A program made the translations under genes and the position numbers. This document shows positions 4,763 through 46,053 of a stretch of 64,000 nucleotides of DNA, piece after piece. The stretch is from NCBI RefSeq assembly GCF_963921235.1, contig NC_086108.1:27282001-27346000 (forward strand), given 5' to 3'. The DNA comes from Mobula hypostoma (lineage: Eukaryota). The notes under the pieces were generated by a model, which searched no databases, was not told the origin of the DNA, and worked only from the letters and a program-made list of their open reading frames with translations. How positions within the stretch are numbered: the first letter of the stretch is position 1; every line of letters begins with the position of its first letter.

Positions 4763-6876
4763 CTGTAGGTAAGCAGGCGACCTATGAGAAGTATATAAAA
4801 TTACGACAGGCATGGGCAGAACAGCAGTCAGTTTGTTTTGAAGGGTAGAGATGTCACTCAGTATATTACTAGAGTAAATACACCTGAGGCAACCAAGGTA
4901 ATGTTTAAAAGTAATGTGTGGGAAAGACCATTACTATAGAGTACAGGTGCCTGGAACAGGCTGCTAGGGTTTATATGGGAAGCAGATACAACAGTAACAT
5001 TTAAGAGGCTTTTAGCTATGCACATGAATATACTGGGAATTGAGGGGTATGATTCATGTACAGGCAGAAGGGATTTAGTTTAATTTGACATAGTGTTCAG
5101 TGCAGCCATTGTGGACAAAGGGCCTTTTCCCATGCTGTCTGCTCTACAGTATGTTGTACATTAAGCACATTATTGGCAACATGATCCCCAATAGGCCATG
5201 CACATGGAACTCTGTAAGTAACTTCTATATTAATCACATAGCTGGTGTGAGTAACTTGTCCACAAAACAGAACATAGAATCTCTTTTGCATTTGACATTT
5301 CACATTGTCTAGTGATTCTACACCAGGGTCTTCACTCTGTGCTTCTAAAGCAAAAAAAGAAGTAAATTTTCACATTTGGATAATACAACCATTGCTGGTA
5401 GAATATCAGGTGGTGACGAGAGGGTGTACACTAGTGAGATATGCCAACTAGTGGAGTAGTGTCACAGCAACAACCTGGCACTCAACGTCGTTATGACGAA
5501 AGAGCTGATTGTGGACTTCAGTAAGGGTAAGAAGAAGGAACACATGCCAATCCTCATAGAGGATCAGAGATGGAGAGCCTGAGCAGTTTCAAGTTCCTGG
5601 ATGTCAGATCTCTGAGGATCAAACCTGGTCCCAACAAATCAATGTAGTTAAAAAGAAGGCAAGAAACATATGTAGCCCCCTGGTAAGCCTTAGGCTCGCT
5701 CAACTCGCTTTCGTCTAGGGGGAGCAGCCTTCGGCCCTGCCAAACTGGGTAATCAGTTTGTGTGGATGCTGTGTGACGTACCCCACCCCGCCAAATAGCA
5801 TACAATATACCATATGCAATTAAATGATTACACTTTATCGATCTTACTGGAACTATGTCATTAATAGAGATAAAATATAAGGTGCCAAACTTATCAAAGT
5901 TCAACCACTTCGTGCACAACAGTTGGAGCTCAATTAACGGAGTCTTCTTTCCACCATTCGATCCCCTCCGACCTCTCGACCCGCCAACTGGGACCAACCA
6001 TGGTGGTCAACCAGACACTCCACACGAGTCAGTCTTCATCTCCTCTCCTCACCGAAGATCCTGGACCTCAGACTCCTGTTCAGGGTGGGTCCTGTCGCCC
6101 AGCTTACAGCATTGCGTCTCCTCACTCTGTCCCCATCTGCCTTCTGCCCAAAAACCCCGTGAAACAATAGCTCACAGACACGCGAGAAAGAATAACATCT
6201 GTCCCAATTGGTTCGTTCTCTCTCTTATCAATAATATAAACCAAACAAGCAGAGAGAGAGAGAACGCCTTACATCGAGGTGATTATTACAGAAAAGCCAT
6301 TTTAATTATAACATAACAAAGAAGCCATTTTGTTAGCCTTCACAGTAACATAAAAGAAGAAACCCCTTAGACTCTCCACCCACCAAATGTAGTCATGTCC
6401 TCATGACTTCTAAATAACTCGCAAACCAGTCCTGCAGACACAAAAACCCAATCCAGGTACACATGGTGACATTGCTCCCCAAACAGTAGACCTTACACCC
6501 AGTCCCAAGAGCGCTACATAGGCCAACCTATCTGGGAGTTTCCTAATCCTCCAAGACCTCCATACCCCCTCAACTAAACCCTTTAGGCTCGAACACTACT
6601 GGGGATACCACGGGTCTGCTTGCCAACTCCTCTCTCAATCTCTCACTCATGCCCCCACTGCATTTCGGAGCCCCCTGTCCCATGTCCGAGGCCCTGTTTC
6701 TTTTCCTTCAGGGTCCTGCTGTAACCCAGGCTGCCCACAGCTAGCCCTCCCTACTACACCTGACTCAGTGGGAGAAGGGCCAAAAGTCTCTTCCTCAATC
6801 ACGGGGAAGTTAGCGAAAGGCAGCATGTACCACACATCCCGCACATCATCCTCTGAAGCTATATTCTTCCTCATTC

Positions 6877-7812: not shown

Positions 7813-10667
7813 ATTTAGCTCTCTCACTGAGTTGTCTTCAGCAGTCAACTCCCCTCCCTCGTGGTATTTCGGAGCATCTACTAAGAGCGTCTCACCCTCA
7901 GATACTTCCCCCAGGCCGTACCACAATCAGCTCTCATTTAAATTCGGTACCGGCCCAACGCTGCTACACATGTCCTCACAAGCGGCTTGAAACACCGGGT
8001 GCATAGACAATGCCCCCATGAACTCCAGTGTCACTGACCAATAATCATCTTCTGGATAATCACTGGCACTGGTACACCAAATCTCCAGTGCCCTTAAGGT
8101 TGTCAAGGGTAAATGCTTCAGAAACCAGTTGTAAAACGAACTGTACAACAACTTGACCTGCGCCCTGGTGTCGAGGATGTCTTTAGCATAGCTTCCATCT
8201 ATCCGTAATGACACACGGGGGCGTGGTCCCTCTAAGCCTTCAGGAATAGGGTCTTTTCCTTTCAGAAATTCCTTGATACATTGCTGGGAACGTGCTCCCC
8301 CAGAGACCCCAAGCTGTTCCCCCACTGGGCCTCCACTAAGTTTCCTGATACCTTTCTGATCAGCTGAACAACTGAGGGAGGCGCTGATCCCCTTAAAACA
8401 TCCCCCTGGCACTGCAAGCAATTTAGCTGCCCTCCTAGCCAGAGAAGATACACTGAAAGCTTTTCCCAATCTCCTGACACAGGTATGGAAAGCCCCCCCA
8501 GGAGCTACATTTTACTTCCAGTCGAACCAGATGCATTTTCCCCCACTTTCAGATAACTGGCAGCTGTCACTACAGTTCTAACACCGTCAACAGCCCACCT
8601 TCTCAAACTTTCAACCAATCCCTATCGCTCTCCCTCAACCAAGCACTGAGAGATCCACTCCGCCCACGTCTCGTACGCCTCCGCCCCTTTAGGGGTGGAC
8701 AATATCCCAAAAGCCAGGCGGAGCCTGCCATAGCTGGAACATTTATTCGCAGATACTACCTCCGAATCAGACCACTCTTTCCTCTCTCTCTCAACAGTAT
8801 AGACAGCCCACGGTCCCGCCTCACCCAACACGCATGCAGTAATAACCAGCAATCCCACAGAAACACACATTACCAACCGCAATCCCACAGAGACACAGCA
8901 GCACTGATTTAAACAGGCCAATCACACAGCGCACCACTGAATCCAATTTCTGACACAGCCCCCAATGTAGCCCCTGGTAAGCCTCAGGCTCGCTCAACTC
9001 ACTTTCGTCTAGAGCGAGCAGCCTTCGGCCCTGTCAAACTGGGTAATCAAGTTTGTGTGGATGCTGTGTGATGTACTCCACCCCGCCAAATAACAGACAA
9101 TACACCATATGCGATTAAATGATTACACTTTATCGATCTTACTGGAACTATGTCATTAATAGAGATAAAATATAAAAGGAAAATAAAAGGTGCCAAACTT
9201 ATCAAAGTTCAACCACTTCATTAGGAGTTTTAAGAGAGTCTATAGATGTACTGTGGAAAGCATTCTGACAGGATGCATCACTGTCAGCCTGTCAGAATGC
9301 TCTCCAGTATGGGGAGAGAGGGCACTGCACAGGACCAAAAGAAGCTGCAGAGGGTTGTAAATCTAGTCAGCTCTATCTTGGGTACTAGCCTACAAAGTAC
9401 CCAGGACATCTTCAGGGAGCAGTGTCTCAGAAAGGCAGCATCCATTATTAAGGACCTCCAGCACCCAGGGCATGCCCTTTTCTCACTGCTACCATCAGGT
9501 AGGAGGTACAGAAGCCTGAAGGTACACACTCAGCGATTCAGGAACAGCTTCTTCCCCTCTACCATTCAATTCCTAAATGGACATTGAATCCTTGGACACT
9601 ATCTCCTTTTTTTAATATACAGTATTTCTGAGTTTTGCACGTTTTTTAATCTATTCAATATACGTATACTGTAATTGATTGATTGATTGATTGTTTTTTT
9701 TCGCTTCTACATTATGTATTGCATTGAACTGCTGCTGTTAAGTTAACAAATTGCATGTCACATGCCAGTGATAATAAACCTGATTCTGATTCTGATTCAT
9801 AAGCACCTTCTGCCCTATGAAGTTTATTCACTGTTTCATTGTAGGATATGCAAGAGTACGTAGCAAGATCTTACATTGTGATACAGTTTAGGTAGCATTG
9901 GATGAGGGGTGTTTCAAATGCACTTTGATACCTCACATGGTCTTTTTCAAACCTTGTCTTCCCTCCAGGTGCACCAGGATTTTTGTGAGCACCTGGAGGG
10001 AAGACAAGGTCACCTCTGACAGTGCTGCACATATGTTGCATGAGCTCAGATCATATACACAAGTGTTGGAGGGCATCATCTCAGCTAAGAATGTGGTACA
10101 GTGCTAAGAAAGGCTGGCACTGTAGAGGATTAATCAGGAGAAACATTCTGACAAACTGTCCACAACTTGGTCCAGATCAAACTATTAAACACTTTCCCTC
10201 ATTGTTCTCTTTGAGGAGTGCTGTAGGAAGACTACTAGAGGGTCCACTAAGAAGCCAGGCCGATTATTCATGCACTGTGGAGGCATGAAGTCTGAGACTA
10301 GCTGAGGAAATCCTATATTGAGCATTGTAGGAATCCTCAGAGTTGCAACAAGATTCTATCTGATTCTTCTATATTCAGGCTTCTAAATTCAATTTCTCTT
10401 CACACATTAAGCCTCCTGCGTCCTGAAACCACCATGGAACATCTTGAAAGCATTCCCTCTGTGGAAAGGATACTCTTTTTTAACAGGGTAGACCAAAAAT
10501 GTCTGAAATACTACAAATATGATCACACCAGAGCCCTATATAATTAAAATAAGACATCCTTACACCTGTAGGAAAAAGTTGCAATAAAAACCAACATACC
10601 ATTTACCTTCTGGACTCCTCTTCAATTGTGCTCTATTTCAGAATTCCTATGTGTGTTTGTAGATCAC

Positions 10668-18464: not shown

Positions 18465-19326
18465 TGTTACGTACCCCGTAACTGGGTTGCCAAACCAGCA
18501 GAAATGGATCACTCAGTTGGAGTCTGGATTACTAGATCTAAGAAAGTTTTATTAAAGAAACAAGCAACACAGTAATCGAAGGGATAATAAATGCAGCAGT
18601 TCAGCAATGATAAACACACGTGCACAGAATTAAGATAACAGGATCAATCAAGCTCTATCGTTGTCTAAGGGTAAATGACCAATTTCAAAGTGACACAAAG
18701 TCCAGTTCAATTTAGTTCAGTTCGCAGTAATCATTGCCATGGCGATGGACAACGTGGGGGGGGGAGAGAGAGAGAACGGGAGCGACTGATCATTCAGAGC
18801 GGCTTCCACTCACAGACTGGCGATATGGCTCATAAGCAGCTTTTGGGCGGGTCCTTTGTGATGTCACCAGGGGTCACCGACTGTGACCCCTCCTCCAGAT
18901 GCGGTCCATCCTCTGCAGTGAACCCGGCACCCAAGTGAGGATGGACACACACCGGGTTCCCGCTGATCGTACCTTTCCACCCTGTGCGTTTATGGCCCAG
19001 TACTTCCCACTGACTTGTGAGAGGCACACCGCTTCCAGGGTCTCGTTACCTCGGGTGTCGTGTGTGTCCTGCCTTAGCGAACCTGTCCCTTTTTATCCCC
19101 CTGCTGGGGTATTGCCTGTCCATCACTTCAAACAGTTCAGGGTTCAAAGGGGGAGCCGATCTTGACAATACCCAGACTGATGGCTCCTTCATTAACATCT
19201 CCAAATGCTGTTTCATTGTGTGCTTTATCTCTCCCTCCCCTGAGGGCAGGTGGCAGACCGACTGCTGATGCCACTGGTGCTATCCCAGGCCAGCAAACAT
19301 CTTAATTTATGTGTATTCTCGTCACA
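18465..19326 (-). mobile_element. Solo LTR
   Basis: TG...CA ends, 4-bp TSD ATTG; homologous to 45222 and 53224 copies. Confidence 0.92.
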
Positions 19327-21070: not shown

Positions 21071-21775
21071 AGGAATCACTGTGTGTATCAGGGAAGGGTG
21101 GAGTTGCATGGACACTGTTTCAGGAGGCAGTCACTCCAATTGGATTAACTATTTCAAATTCGGTATGTAGTCAGGGACAAGAGAGTGTGAATGTGAGTGA
21201 GGTGAGAAGGAAGATCCAGTAGGTAGTGCTGGAAGAACCTTAGCCCTTGAACTTGTCCATCCAATCTAAGATTCTTGCTTCCTATGCGAATGGAAATGGG
21301 GGCTGTAGGAATGATGAACAACCGAAGGTGTGTTAATACAGACAATTCTCTGTTGCAACGATTAAGTCAAGTCAAGTCACTTTTTATTGTCATTTCGACC
21401 ATAACTGCTGGTACAGTACACAGTAAAAATGAGACAACATTTTTCAGGACCATGGTACTACATGAAAAATACAAAAACTACACTGAACTACGTAAAAAAA
21501 CAACTCAAAACTACACTAGACTACAGACCTACCCAGGACTGCATAAAGTGCACAAAACAGTGCAGGCATTACAATAAATAACAAACAAGACAATAGGCAC
21601 AGTAGAGGGCTGTAGGTTGGTGTCAGTCCAGGCTCTGGGTATTGAGGAGTCTGATGACTTGGGGGAAGAAACTGTTACATAGTCTGGTCGTGAGAGCCCA
21701 AATGCTTGAGTGCCTTTTGCCAGATGGCAGGAGGGAGAAGAGTTTGTATGAGGGGTGCGTGGGGTCCTTCATAAT

Positions 21776-24700
21776 TCACCATGTATATATGTTGTAACTC
21801 GGTTACCCGTCTGGACACACCCCTCTGCTGACTGCCCCTGTGGCTCCTCCCACAGAGTCCTGTATAAAGGTGTTTGCCTTGCCCCTCCCCCTCAGTCTGG
21901 GGGCAGACACTCACTGTGGAGGTCGTATTGTACAGCGAATAAAAGCCTATCAGTATTTTACCAAACCTCAGTCTTTTGGAGTAATTGAAGGTGCTTCAAT
22001 TTTATTCGCTGTACGTTTTAAAACATGGAACAGTCCCTGAGACCAGAAAAATTAGACCTCGATCCACAAATGCCTGAAGCTGGAAACGCTTTCGAACTCT
22101 GACTGGCCTGCTTTGAAGTGTATCTAGAGGAGATTAAAGTGACCGACCCCGTAGCGAAGCACAGAGTTCTACTCTCCAGGGTCAGTCCACGGGTCTATCC
22201 GCTGATCAGAGACCAGCCGAACTACGACGGCGCGATGAACGCACTCAAAAGACAATACCTGCGGCCGATAAACAGCGTCTATGCTTGGCATCGCTTAGCG
22301 ACACGGCAACAACGGTCCGGGGAATCAAGTGCTGAGTTTGTCCGGGCCCTAAAGACACTCGTGCGAGCCTGCAATTGCCAGGAGCTGACGGTGGCGCAGC
22401 ATGCAGAACTCCTAGTGAGAGACGCCTTCGTCACGGGGACCAGGTCAGTGTACGTGCGCCAGCGGCTGCTGGAAAAAGCCGATCTTACCCTAAGTTCGGC
22501 GATTGAGCTGGCTGATACGTTGGAGGCCGCTCTGCATAACTCCGAGGCTCTCCAGGCATGCGATCCCCCGATGGCCTCGTGGGCGCCGCAGACCCCGCAA
22601 CCCGCCGGCGAATCGACCTCGGCTGCAGCCAGTTGTGAGTCTGCGAAGTGCTACTTCTGTGGACTGGAGAAGCACGCCCGGAAACGCTGCGCGGCCCAAC
22701 AAGCTACCTGTTCCAGCTGCGGAAAGAAGGGCCACCGCCAAGGTCTGTAAGTCAAAACTGCGAGCGGGATCGAGCAGCGCCACGTGCGAGACGCGGGGGT
22801 TGCCAACTTCCCTGCACACTGCCACCATGTGCGAGACATGGGGGCCGCCATCTTCCCTGCACGCTGCCACCACGTGCGAGACATGGGGGCGGCCATCTTG
22901 GTCGGTGCCACCTCCCACTGCCTACGACCAACGGGTGCTCACGGGCCACCCCACCGTGCCGGACCAAGCCAGCGACCCCACCCTGGCTTCCATGACCCTC
23001 GACCAAAGCGCTCCCCATCAGCTCGCAAGGTCAATGATGGACATCCTGGTGAAGGGGCACAGGACAAGCTGCCTGTTTGACACAGGCAGCACGGAGAGTT
23101 TTATCCACCCGGACACGGTGCAGCATTGTGGACTCATGATACGGCCGGTAAGTCAGAGGGTCACCATGGCCTCCGGGTTGCATACAACAGACATCCGGTG
23201 GGGTTGTGTAGCGACGCTAGTGGTGCAGGGCACAGAATATCGGAACTTTAAGTTACTGGTCTTGCCTCAACTGTGTGCCCCTGTGCTGTTGGGGTTGGAC
23301 TTCCAGAGCCACCTGAAAAGTGTGACAATGAAGTATGATGGGCCCCTCCCACCAATTACTGTCATAATTCCCCTGTTTTGTAGAGATATGTCACGTACCC
23401 CGCTACTGACCACACACACACACCGACCCGCACATCCCACCCAACATCATGCCAACTGCCACACTACCAACACCACTTGCGGCCTCTCCACCCTCAGGAT
23501 CCCTCCCCCACCGCTGTTCGCCAACCTGACCCCCGACTGTAAACCTGTGGCAACTAAAAGCAGGAGGTACAGCGCGGGGGACAGAGCTTTCATTAAGTCG
23601 GAGGTGCAGCGGCTGCTCAGGGAGGGGGTCATTGAAGCAAGCACAAGTCCTTGGAGGGCGCAGGTGGTGGTTGTTCGGAACGGGGAGAAGAATAGGATGG
23701 TCGTGGACTGTAGCCAGACCATCAATAGGTTCACGCAGCTCGACGCGTACCCTCTACCCCGCATCGCGGATATGGTCAATCAGATAGCACAGTACAAGGT
23801 GTACTCGACCATAGACCTAAAATCCGCTTACCATCAGCTCCCCATCCACCGGGAGGACCGCCCTTACACTGCCTTCGAGGCGAACGGCAGGCTTTATCAA
23901 TTCCTGTGCGTCCCCTTTGGTGTCACGAATGGTGTATCTGTCTTCCAGAGGGCAATGGACCGGATGGTGGACCAGTGCCAACTGAAGGCCACGTTCCCAT
24001 ATCTGGATAACATCACCATCTGCGGTCACGACCAGGAGGATCACGACAACAACCTCCAAAAATTTCTCCAAGCGGCCAAATCTTTCAACCTCACCTATAA
24101 CAAGGACAAGTGTGTATTTGGGACCACCCGACTTGCTATCCTTGGGTGTGTCATGGAGAATGGAGTCATTGGCCCTGACCCCGACCGTATGTGCCTCCTG
24201 TTGGAACTCCTTCCCAACACACTCAGAGCCCTCAAAAGGTGCCTGGGCTTCTTTTCATATTACGCCCAATGGGTCTATAACTATGCAGACAAGGCCCGAC
24301 CCCTGGTCAAGTCCACCACATTCTCCCTCTCTGCCGAGGCCCACGCGGCCTTCAACCGCATAAAAGGGGACATTGCCAAAGCAGCAATGCATGCGGTGGA
24401 TGAGGCCATTCCCTTCCAAGTGGAGAGTGACGCCTCCGACTTTGCGCTGGCTGCTACCCTCAACCAGGCAGGAAGACCAGTGGCGTTCTACTCCCGTACC
24501 CTTCAAGGCCCTGAAATTCGGCACTCTGCGCTAGAGAAAGAGGCCCAGGCCATAGTGGAAGCTATAAGGCACTGGAGGCACTATCTTGCCGGCAAAAGGT
24601 TCACCCTGCTAACTGACCAGCGCTCAGTCGCATTCATGTTTAATAATCAGCAGCGGAGCAAAATCAAAAATGATAAAATTCTGAGGTGGAGAATCGAACT

Positions 24701-26240
24701 CTCCACCTACAACTATGACATCATGTACAGGCCTGGGAAGCTCAACGAGCCCTCCGATGCCCTATCCCGGGGAACATGCGCCAGCGCGCAGATCGACTGG
24801 CTATACACCCTACATGTAGACCTTTGCCACCCGGGAGTCACCCGGCTTTTCCACTTCGTGAAAGCCCAGAACCTGCCTTACTCCCTTGAGGAGATCAGGA
24901 TGATGACCAGGGACTGCCAAGTCTGCGCAGAGTGCAAACCGCACTTCTACCGACCCGAAAAGGCACCACTCATCAAGGCCACCCGCCCCTTTGAGTGACT
25001 GAGTGTTGACTTTAAGGGCCCCCTTCCCTCCACCGACTGCAATGTGTACTTTCTTAACATAATTGACGAGTACTCGCGGTTCCCCTTCGCCATCCCCTGC
25101 CCCGACACCACTACCACGTCAGTTATAAAAGCCCTGCGCAAGCTCTTCACTCTGTTCGGATACCCATGCTATATCCACAGTGACAGAGGGTCCTCGTTTA
25201 TGAGTGACGAGCTGCGCCAGTACCTACTGGCTAGGGGAATTGCAACCCAGTAGGACCACGAGCTATAATCCCCGGGGGAATGGACAGGTAGAGAAGGAGA
25301 ATACCACGGTGTGGAAAGCCACACTCTTAGCCCTCAGGTCAAAGGGACTGCTGGTCTCCCGCTGGCAGGAGGTCCTTCCCGAGGCACTCCACTCCATCCG
25401 CTCCCTGTTATGCACAGCCACCAATGCCACCCCTCATGAGCGGCTCTTTTCATTTCCCAGAAAGTCGACCACTGGGACCACCCTACCAACTTGGCTGACA
25501 TCCCTGGGGCCAGTGCTGCTCTGGAAACATGCGAGGAGCAATAAATACTCCCCGATGATCGTGAGGGTTCACTTACTTCATGCGAACCCCCAGTATGCCT
25601 ATGCAGTTTTACCTGATGGGCGGGAGGACACGGTCTCCATCCGCGACCTGGCGCCCGCAGGAGCTCCGGGCCCCTACCCTGAACACTCCGTAGTGACTAT
25701 TGACCCCGTACCCACCAATGTATGTACCTACGAGACACCGTGCACCCCAAACCCTATACAGACACCACACGACACTCCCATACCGGGCGCGACGCACACG
25801 CACGAGGGATTACCGACGCCTAACGTGCTGGTACCTGAAGTCAGGCCGGAGCCAGCACAACCGCCATCACCGGTGCAATCACCGCCAGTGCTACGTAGAT
25901 CACAGCGACGGACTCGACCGCCTGACAGACTTGACCTGTAAATATACTTCTTGTAAATATTGTCAGTCACTTCACCCCGCGGGACTCTTTTTTAAAAAAA
26001 GGAGGGGTGAATGTGGTAAACCATATATATATGTTGTAACTCGGTTACCTGTCTGGACACACCCCTCTGCTGACTGCCCCTGTGGCTCCTCCCACAGAGT
26101 CCTGTATAAAGGTGTTCGCCTTGCCCCTCCCCCTCAGTCCGGGGGCAGACAGTCACTGTGGAGGTCGTATTGTACAGAGAATAAAAGCCTTTCAGTATTT
26201 TACCAAACCTCAGTCTTTTGGAGTAATTGAAGGTGCTTCA
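21776..26240 (+). mobile_element. Near full-length Ty3/Gypsy LTR retrotransposon
   Basis: LTRs 21776-21998 and 26012-26240 (about 8 differences by eye); 5-bp TSD ATAAT; PPT 25994-26011; gag-PR-RT-RH-IN order. Confidence 0.97.
22025..25941 (+). pseudogene. Disrupted gag-pol polyprotein of the Gypsy element
   Basis: ATG 22025; stop near 22100; CSSCGKKGH/AKVC knuckle with frameshift near 22737; LFDTGS; YLDN; ESDAS; HPG..C..C; stop at 24996; VDFKGP, IDEYSR, HSDRG; frameshift near 25245. Confidence 0.93.
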
Positions 26241-28504
26241 ATAATGCTGTTTGCTTTACGGATGCAGCGTGTGGTGTATATGTCTCTAATGGTGGGAAGA
26301 GAGACCCCGATGATCTTCTCAGCTGACCTCACTATCCGTTGCAGGGTCTTGCAATCCGAGATGGTGCAATTTCCGAACCAGGCAGTGTTGCAGCTGCTCA
26401 GGATGCTCTCAGTACAACCTCTGTAGAATGTGGTGAGGATGGGGGGTGGGAGATGGACTTTCCTCAGCCTTCGCAGAAAGTAGAGACGCTGCTGGGCCTT
26501 CTTTGCTATGGAGCTGGTGTTGAGGGGCCAGGTGAGATTCTCCGCCAGGTGAACACCAAGAAATTTGGTGCTTTTAATGATCTCTACAGAGGAGTCATCG
26601 ATGTTCAGCGGAGAGTGGTCATTCTGTGTCCTCCTGAAGTCAACAACCATCTCTTTTGTTTTGTTCACATTCAGAGACAGGTTGTTAGCTCTGCACCAGT
26701 CCGTTAGCCCCTGCACCTGCTCTCTGTATGCTGATTCATCATTCTATCGTTCTTGCTGATGAGACCCACAACGGTCGTGTCATTGGCGAACTTGATGGTG
26801 TGGTTCAAGCTGTGTGTTGCAGCACAGTCGTGGGTCAGCAGAGTGAACAGCAGTGGACTGAGCACATAGCCCTGGGGGGCCCCCGTGCTCAGTGTGATGG
26901 TGTTGGAGACGCTGCTTCCAATCCGGACTGACTGGGGTCTCCCAGTCAGGAAGTCTAGGATCCAGTTGCAGAGGGAGTTGTTCAGGCCCAGTAGGCTCAG
27001 CTTTCCAATCAGTTTCTGAGGAATGATTGTGTTGAATGCTGAACTGAAGTCTATGAACAGCATTCGAACATACGTGTCTTTTTTGTCCAGGTGGTTTAGG
27101 GCCAGGTGGAGGGTGATGGCAATGGTGTCGTCTGTTGAACGGTTGGGATGGTATGCGAACTGCAGGGGGTCCAGTGAGGGGGGCAACAGGGTCTTGATGT
27201 GTCTCATGACGAGTCTCTCCCAAATGCTGTGTTGTTTAACTGGTGGACGCATTCAGGATAATTCACCTGACCTGCAATGGAAATTGGCAGGGAGGAAAAA
27301 GATCCAATTGGGTACCAATGATGTTGGATGGGAAAGGAAAGAGGGTCTGCTGAGGGAATTTGAGCAGCTAGGGACTAAATAATAACACAGAACCAAATAG
27401 GTAGTAATCTCTGAATTGTTACCTGAGTGATGTGCAAATTGGTCAGAGAGTTGGTTATATGATCAGAGAGTCAGAAGCATGGCTCAACGATTGGCAGAGA
27501 AGAAGTTGGTTTGAATTTGGGAAAGAGTTGTTCCAAAGGAATGAGCTCCACCTAAACAAAGTTGGGATCAGGTCCTAAAAATCACATAGCCAGGGCTGTG
27601 GATAGCGCTTTATATTAAATAGTTGGGGGAAGGGTGACATAACAGCTTGGAAAAGTATGGAAAGATTAGCAGGGTAAGAGAGGGCAGGAGATGTTACTGA
27701 AGTCTACAGAATAAAGAATAAGACAGGATGTTCAGAAAAACATGAATTAACTTCAGGCAACATGAGAAGAAGGGTGTTGAATACAGGACTGAAAAAGTTT
27801 TATTTGAATGCACTCACCATACAAAATAAAGTAGCTGCAGCTTATAGCACAGCTAGGAATTGACAGGTATGATATGTGGGCATCACAGAGTCATGGTTGA
27901 AAGAAGATCACAGCTGAGAGCTAAATATCTAAGGATACACATTCTATTGAAAAGACAGATATGTGGACAAAGGGAGTGGAGTAGGTTTGTTGGTAAAATA
28001 TGAAATAATGTCCTTAGAAAGAAGTTACGTAGGATCAGAGGAAATAGAATCCTTGTGGGTAGAGTTAAGAAACTGCAAGGGTAAAGACCCCCTGGTGGTA
28101 GTTATATACAGGCCACAGAATAGTGGCCAGGATGAAGGCTACAAATTCTAATGAGAGATAAAATAGGTCTATGAAAAAGGCAATGTTACAAAGGCCATGG
28201 GGGACTTCAGTATGCAAGCAGATTGGGAACATCAGGTTGGTACTGGAATCCAAGAGAATGTTTTGTAGAATGCCTACAAGATGTTTTTTTTAACAGCAGT
28301 TTGAGTTTGACCCCACTAGGGAAAAAGAAATTCTGTATTGGATGTTGTGCAATGAAACAGATTTGACTAGTGATCTTAAGGTAAAGGAGCTCTTAGGAGG
28401 CGGTGATCATAATGTCATAGAATTCACCCTGCAGTTTGAGAGGGAAAAGCTAAAATTAGATGTGGCAGCATCACAGATGAGTTAAGAATAACAAGAGGAT
28501 CAAG

Positions 28505-45221: not shown

Positions 45222-46053
45222 TGTTACGTACCCCATAACTGGGTTGCCAAACCAGCAGAAATGGACCACTTAGTTGGAGTCTGGATTACTGGAACTAAGA
45301 AAGTTTTTATTAAAGAAATAAGCAACACAGTACTCTACTCAAAAGGATATAAATGCAACAGTTTAGCAATGAATAAACACACATGTACACAAAACTAGGA
45401 TAATCAGATCAATCAAGCTCTATCGCAGTCTAGGGGTAAAATGATCAGTCATCAAGTGACACAGAGTTCAGTTCTATTCAGTTCGCAGTAATTGCCGTCG
45501 TGTCGTTGGGGAGCGAGAGAGAGAGAACGAATGAATATGCAAATCGGTTTCCAAACAGACCTTCGACATTCCTCGCAGTTAGCTTTCGGGCAAGCCCTTT
45601 GTAATGTCTTCTGAGGTCACCGACTGTGACCCCTCCATTCCAGATACGATCGTTCTGCGGTGAACCCGGCACCCAGGCAAGGGCGGACACACACACCAGG
45701 TTCCCGTCCGACCGTATCTTTCCACCCTGTGTGTCTATGGCTGGTCCTCCGATCAGACCTCCAAAAACTCCCAGCAACTTATGGGGGCACACCACTTCCA
45801 GGGTCTCGTTACCTCGTGGTGTCGTGAGTCTGTTGCCTTAGCGAACCTGTCCCTTTTTATCCCCCTGCTGGGGTATCGCCTGTCCATCAAACTTCAAACA
45901 GTTCAGGGTTCAAAGCTACCGGTCTCTGACAATATTCGGAACCGTGTCTCCTTTCGGCAATCTCTCTCGTCTCTCTCTTATTAGCACCTTGCACGTTCCC
46001 CCCATTGTCCTCTTATCGGCATCAATCTTCTGATAACTGGTTCTTTTGTCACA
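45222..46053 (-). mobile_element. Solo LTR
   Basis: TG...CA, TSD ACCC. Confidence 0.92.

Follow-up and report, generated by a model that had tools for sequence, protein, structure and literature searches.

Self-priming of reverse transcription is tied, in the available portions of the papers concerned, to Tf1/sushi elements, Tcn1 and plant TAR (PMC3601003, PMC6317226, PMC6238403, PMC6934838, PMC11042837, PMC4600332, PMC2582038, PMC7175516, PMC5341516, PMC5371799, PMC2864245). The excerpted text on Tf1 gives its primer as the first 11 bases of its own RNA (PMC7175516). For Tcn1 (Gypsy) and TAR, Houba and Osr-1 (Copia), self-priming was predicted from an LTR complement of at least 10 bp located 0-5 nt after the 5' LTR; the portion of that paper available describes neither an overlap with a poly(A) signal nor fold-back insertions (PMC6317226).

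Here we analyse a Ty3/Gypsy element within a 64,000-nt stretch of Mobula hypostoma DNA (the window). It has the Ty3/Gypsy domain order in common with Tf1 and Tf2 of Schizosaccharomyces pombe, Tj1 and the sushi chromoviruses. As far as the extracts on Tf1/sushi elements describe them, the likeness extends to the lack of a tRNA primer-binding site (PBS), a complement of the element's own LTR, an 11-nt paired core and signs of a plus-strand 3' end that bears the PBS (PMC7175516, PMC4600332, PMC11042837). Self-priming is deduced here by the same criterion as for Tcn1, TAR, Houba and Osr-1, which the available text assigns to plant lineages of other clades (PMC6317226). A full-text literature search, with Repbase Reports and most subscription journals outside its scope, returned no description of self-priming in the clade of this element in the portions retrieved.

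The element and its arm-PBS helix

The element spans 21776-26240 on the + strand and is bounded by a 5-bp target duplication, ATAAT, that is intact despite the damaged 5' LTR start in the window copy (Table 1). The pol order PR-RT-RNase H-IN places it in Ty3/Gypsy (Metaviridae), as do the TG...CA LTRs (229 bp at full length, the left end being damaged in the window copy), the polypurine tract (PPT) and the 5-bp duplication. The best relative of its RT among solved structures is Ty3 RT. In the window copy the frame is interrupted by two stops, one early in gag and one at 24996-24998, and by two frameshifts, near 22740 and near 25230. Its closest protein relatives are encoded in Mobula (94%) and Hypanus (86%), relatives at about 60% occur in cnidarians, a damselfly and a nematode, and no relative was present among the viral contigs searched. 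The normal LTR-PBS junction occurs 443 times exactly in the genome, indicating a large, very abundant family; a second, more distant gag query (P0032) returned mostly the same family.

The element sits inside another high-copy repeat (window 21700-21775 and from 26246), and the empty site of that repeat is seen in related runs. The window also contains direct repeats 3.3 kb apart around GC-rich ORFs (5677-5880 and 8971-9175), probably another mobile element, and two related stretches starting with TGTTA (18465-19125 and 45222-45889) that are probably solo LTRs of another family. A tRNA-Gly called by ARAGORN inside pol (24680-24770) was taken as spurious.

Table 1. Features of the Ty3/Gypsy element and its borders (positions are those of the window)
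Feature	Position	Strand	Remarks
Left target-site duplication ATAAT	21771..21775	+	Identical to 26241-26245; empty site present as loose ends in related runs
5' LTR	21776..21998	+	Ends in CA; first ~9 bases lost or altered relative to the TGTGG start of other copies
TATA box TATAAA (predicted)	21863..21868	+	31 nt before the Inr A
Inr-like TCAGTC	21892..21897	+	Predicted start A21894; also the loop of a 5-bp GC hairpin (RNA folding)
LTR arm, putative self-primer	21930..21944	+	AATAAA at 21938-21943; 11-nt core from A21934
RCC(T)A boundary after the arm	21945..21949	+	Conserved across families; candidate cleavage site 21944/21945
55-nt loop: rest of R, U5, terminal CA, spacer A	21945..21999	+	Predicted inner stem; putative template of minus-strand strong-stop DNA
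PBS position	22000..22014	+	Exact arm complement, no TGG
gag-pol	22025..25941	+	Two zinc knuckles, PR, RT, RNase H, IN; no chromodomain match
Polypurine tract with AA spacer	25994..26011	+	
3' LTR	26012..26240	+	229 bp; 97% identical to 5' LTR; arm copy 26172-26186, one change
Right target-site duplication ATAAT	26241..26245	+	

The original prediction described an element without a tRNA-type PBS whose LTR contains a perfect 15-nt complement of the PBS position, including AATAAA. Both statements hold. The LTR segment GTACAGCGAATAAAA, here called the arm, recurs as its exact reverse complement, which begins one base (A21999) past the LTR-terminal CA (21997-21998), and TGG is absent after the 5' LTR. 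The pattern matches three sites in the window: both arms and, with one mismatch, the copy in the 3' LTR; 100 shuffles give an expectation of 0.00. When 21885-22030 is folded as RNA, the arm-PBS helix forms and z is -3.2; 13 of its 15 pairs have a probability of at least 0.98, and the two A-U pairs closest to the loop reach 0.42 and 0.70. A search of 21700-22200 against Rfam gave no match.

Covariation and placement of the clade

Scans of metagenome and MAG contigs yielded 88 loci of the clade. Of 41 loci entered into a first pairing test, two lacked sufficient length; an LTR-PBS complement is present in 33 of the other 39. Among the six misses, L168 does have a 16-nt complement when the true start of gag is used, and L247 is a rotated contig starting within gag. 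No complement was found in L215 and L216, nor in L174 and L179, which have only 92 and 118 nt upstream. At least five further loci (L177, L204, L207, L225 and L252) carry one. Some clade elements (L245-L252; P0051, P0137) occur on bacterial MAG contigs and under bacterial NCBI names, likely reflecting host contamination.

We compared 20 families, comprising 18 non-redundant loci that were chosen because they show the repeat, the window element and one sister subfamily. Pairing is seen in 19-20 of the 20 families at each of positions 1-11, in 12 at position 16 and in 4-8 beyond. Watson-Crick pairing over nt 1-11 amounts to 98.6% when arm and PBS come from the same family and 64.5% when they come from different families; for nt 12-15 the values are 81% and 41%. 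None of 20,000 permutations reaches the within-family pairing in either segment. The PBS-position 11-mers are distinct in all 20 families and TGG is absent from the first 8 nt after CA in every one (0/20), so no single tRNA can serve them.

The register is fixed across families: a single base separates the LTR-terminal CA from the complement, and RCC follows the arm (R in 19/20, C in 19/20, C in 18/20). The 10th base from the arm end is G in 19 of the families and the 11th is A in 14, often in an Inr-like TTAGT context. The loop measures 36-87 nt in the 20 families, and in the clade the partner ends 24-87 nt ahead of the PBS. In L210, L225 and L207 the arm does not end in AAA, yet it is complementary to the PBS position; the register is kept where the AAA changes (L207).

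Sister subfamilies in the same genome (five aligned loci) have changed both sides of 4 of the 15 pairs, with 98.7% of cells still pairing, compared with 33-53% in slid controls. Within the main family, arm and PBS changed concordantly in the same copy in 3 of 80 cases, where 1.04 would be expected (p = 0.076, not significant), and most arm or PBS changes there look like later decay. The covariation that the original prediction proposed to test is therefore found across families and between sister subfamilies, but not as significant same-copy concordance within the main family. We conclude that the arm-PBS pairing is genuine and extends through the clade.

An RT-RNase H tree of 49 rows (aligned pieces shorter than 150 residues were dropped, which removed L214; L251, L303 and L304 had no aligned piece) unites the window element and its relatives in one group of 37 rows with support 100/99 on a long branch. 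It is separate from six Mag-like elements (found with P0040) and from six SH3_Tf2-bearing ones, all of the same genome and acting as stand-ins for named references. With three groups, the tree gives neither the root nor the sister relation. The RT phylogeny thus places the element in a group separate from both the sushi-type and the Mag-type stand-ins.

Other features agree with this placement to different degrees. Six proteins (five relatives and the IN tail of the window element) have no Pfam match to a chromodomain or SH3_Tf2-1 at E 0.05. The element has the PBS complementary to its own LTR that marks Tf1/sushi elements; it lacks their chromodomain or SH3_Tf2-1, and its RT falls outside the chromovirus clade as represented by the stand-ins. 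The element likely works like Tf1, but on these grounds it falls outside the Tf1/sushi group. In its clade the arm typically terminates in TAAA ahead of RCC and is perhaps internal to the RNA, unlike in Tf1/sushi elements, and the partner-PBS gap is 24-87 nt versus about 175 nt in the sushi-type L306 and L307. Read on the minus strand, these two (L306:2104 and L307:2082) show a second self-priming signature in the genome: 10-11 nt at the PBS are complementary to a partner in the element itself, the end of which lies about 175 nt upstream of the LTR end.

With the Mag lineage (SURL/C-clade) the element shares compactness, a gag with two zinc knuckles and faint gag similarity (P0040, 28%). The Mag-like elements of the same genome, used as stand-ins, have a TGG PBS, an RT about 29% identical and a separate branch; the element has neither the tRNA PBS nor the RT grouping of that lineage. 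In Mag-like loci L291-L302 and L311-L316 a T run lies between the CA of the LTR and the TGG of the PBS. Cigr-1 of Ciona intestinalis is an element of about 4.2 kb with LTRs of about 245 bp, one ORF and a SURL-like gag. The size of the elements in our clade fits that of Cigr-1, which, compared by description only, is a candidate name for them. The small Cigr-1 clade is listed for molluscs and one tunicate, and its PBS is not mentioned in the available portion of that text (PMC6238403).

Fold-back insertions

The genome contains insertions in which the PBS runs into an inverted LTR instead of gag, giving the structure LTR, PBS, inverted LTR. These fold-backs first surfaced through a loose pattern, about 216 of whose 558 matches are background according to a control. 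Two exact patterns find 32 and 14 fold-back junctions and a relaxed pattern finds 67; the 32 exact junctions compare with the 443 normal ones. The LTR start is reached in 63 of the 76 loci examined, and 9 of these 63 continue past the PPT, in most cases into internal sequence in inverted orientation. Where the LTR start is present at both ends without a PPT (34 loci), the insertion is flanked by a perfect 5-bp duplication in 26 cases, by one with a single mismatch in five and by none in three. Fold-backs stop at the LTR boundary and not in flanking DNA, and hence would have been made before integration and inserted by integrase. One locus, L128, is a TRIM-like mini element whose two LTRs enclose about 330 nt of internal ends and whose right end carries a fold-back extension.

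It could be argued that the arms pair by chance, that the junctions are assembly artefacts or that the loop was inverted at the DNA level between the arms. Short inverted repeats are common and these arms are AT-rich. The shuffling expectation, the 443 exact normal junctions and the family-specific covariation contradict chance and artefact. A DNA flip of the loop would yield the reciprocal junction, which occurs nowhere in the genome even with one mismatch allowed, and fold-backs end at the LTR start with target duplications. We regard this explanation as refuted.

The fold-backs suggest that a plus-strand end lay free in the PBS prior to integration, as a copied self-primer would lead one to expect. 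Their simplest source is a plus strand that ends in PBS sequence and primes on an arm, although a template switch by the plus strand on its way across the PBS could also produce them, irrespective of how synthesis was first primed. The PPT lies on the left in three fold-back loci, which implies that the right end of the cDNA was extended, as would be the case with the PBS tail that Tf1 cDNA keeps according to extracts of PMC11042837. Ty3 particles, in the portion of text available, accumulate displaced plus-strand strong stops that bear a primer copy (PMC5371799). The palindrome halves differ at a shared transversion in 15 of 29 loci; several of these sites adjoin indels and L137 was mis-cut in the comparison. 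The left/right difference hints at two templates, to which we give little weight.

The probable primer, its position and the poly(A) signal

Self-priming, as proposed in the original prediction, is supported by covariation at both levels, by the absence of TGG from all 20 families and by fold-backs with target duplications. We consider it probable that the LTR arm of the element primes its reverse transcription in place of a tRNA. Where this primer lies in the RNA is less clear-cut. The TATA box that the original prediction placed near 21863 is present, and the start at A21894 was predicted before the interior fold-back stops were seen. The TATA-Inr spacing is the same within 2 nt in three sister subfamilies, where the box reads AATAAA. 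Five of 13 interior fold-back stops fall within -4 to +1 of A21894 (binomial p = 1.3e-4 to 1.6e-3, depending on the range assumed); another five lie 15-26 nt downstream, near the shortest detectable length, and three lie near the LTR start. The Inr coincides with a hairpin loop, so nicking or breakage there is a rival reading of the stops at 21894. In L220 and L245 an Inr-like site 40-50 nt before the arm end is followed by a GCCGCCATG motif, which we take to be YY1-like; it would fit a leader there too.

These data lean slightly towards the further claim of the original prediction that the partner lies inside the transcript, so that the primer may be internal to the RNA rather than its first bases. 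Within self-priming we slightly and tentatively favour an internal 5' arm behind a leader of about 36 nt. RNA starting near 21894 would fold its arm onto the PBS. Cleavage would follow at the junction of the arm with the conserved RCC, the RNase H of the element being the probable enzyme, as in Tf1. The new RNA 3' end would prime a minus-strand strong stop of about 55 nt, which would jump via the roughly 20 nt of R between the arm and the poly(A) site. Plus-strand strong-stop DNA would then copy the primer and end in PBS sequence. Such an end matches the arm of any LTR and would sometimes prime there, which is the likely origin of the palindromic LTR-PBS-inverted-LTR insertions. If fully copied, a 51-nt primer would leave a flap, calling for a Ty3-like recycling route or trimming.

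Two other geometries would equally make the arm the primer. Transcription could start at or just before the arm, so that the first 11-16 bases of the RNA prime as in Tf1. The near-perfect pairing spans exactly 11 nt and then decays, and other families conserve an AG at a distance of 11 nt from the arm end, which would fit a Tf1-like 11-nt primer. The pairing that persists over nt 12-15 does not favour such a start, and the window family has no TATA about 30 nt before the arm; its TATA/Inr pair and the five clustered stops lie further upstream. We consider this geometry unlikely for the element, if the more credible of the two. The arm copy in the 3' LTR could instead prime, with the RNA 3' end cut after the arm and paired with the PBS in a circle, R being 21894 to 21944. 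This would provide a long R for the first jump, account for the leader ahead of the arm and accommodate the nine fold-backs that continue through the PPT. Such run-through products are equally explained if a PBS end primes on another RNA or cDNA molecule. The hairpin at the 5' end, local and with a loop of 55 nt, is predicted to form first, and RNase H would tend to destroy a 3' primer after the jump. A 3' LTR primer is therefore quite improbable.

The hairpin might also be a regulatory RNA that masks the poly(A) signal in the 5' LTR or controls packaging or translation, with something else acting as the primer. Masking of a poly(A) signal by a hairpin is established in HIV-1. In the window element AATAAA is inside the helix in the 5' LTR context, and five of its six bases are unpaired in the folded 3' LTR. 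Hiding of the signal only in the 5' LTR, as originally predicted, is therefore plausible on structural grounds in this family, as modelled by folding. Across the clade it fares less well: AATAAA or ATTAAA stands at the arm end in only 10 of the 20 families, so masking is not the conserved purpose of the helix, and two of the ten families without a canonical hexamer there have one unmasked in the loop. A pattern search at distances of up to 30 nt from the arm found no poly(A)-tailed retrocopies. The complement always begins one base past the CA of the LTR, which masking does not require; nor does masking predict plus-strand ends in the PBS, and no other primer site was found. A purely regulatory hairpin is accordingly unlikely, and poly(A) masking is at most a second use of the helix.

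A wider scenario is possible, and we offer it tentatively. A large, animal-wide Gypsy clade outside the chromoviruses may have gained self-priming on its own, with an internal R segment as the primer. In rays this would be the poly(A)-signal segment about 36 nt behind the cap, one sequence ending transcription in the 3' LTR and priming in the 5' LTR, and dozens of palindromic insertions made by integrase would record both the primer and the transcription start.

This clade will receive poor scores from LTR finders for which a tRNA PBS is mandatory. The fold-back insertions preserve intermediates of reverse transcription in the genome, where they can be studied even if no element is live. An internal primer, if true, would need a different route for release and second strand transfer. 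Self-priming in Gypsy is tied to Tf1 and its chromovirus kin in the available portions of the cited papers, and the same signature in a separate, widespread animal clade means either a second origin or a much older trait.
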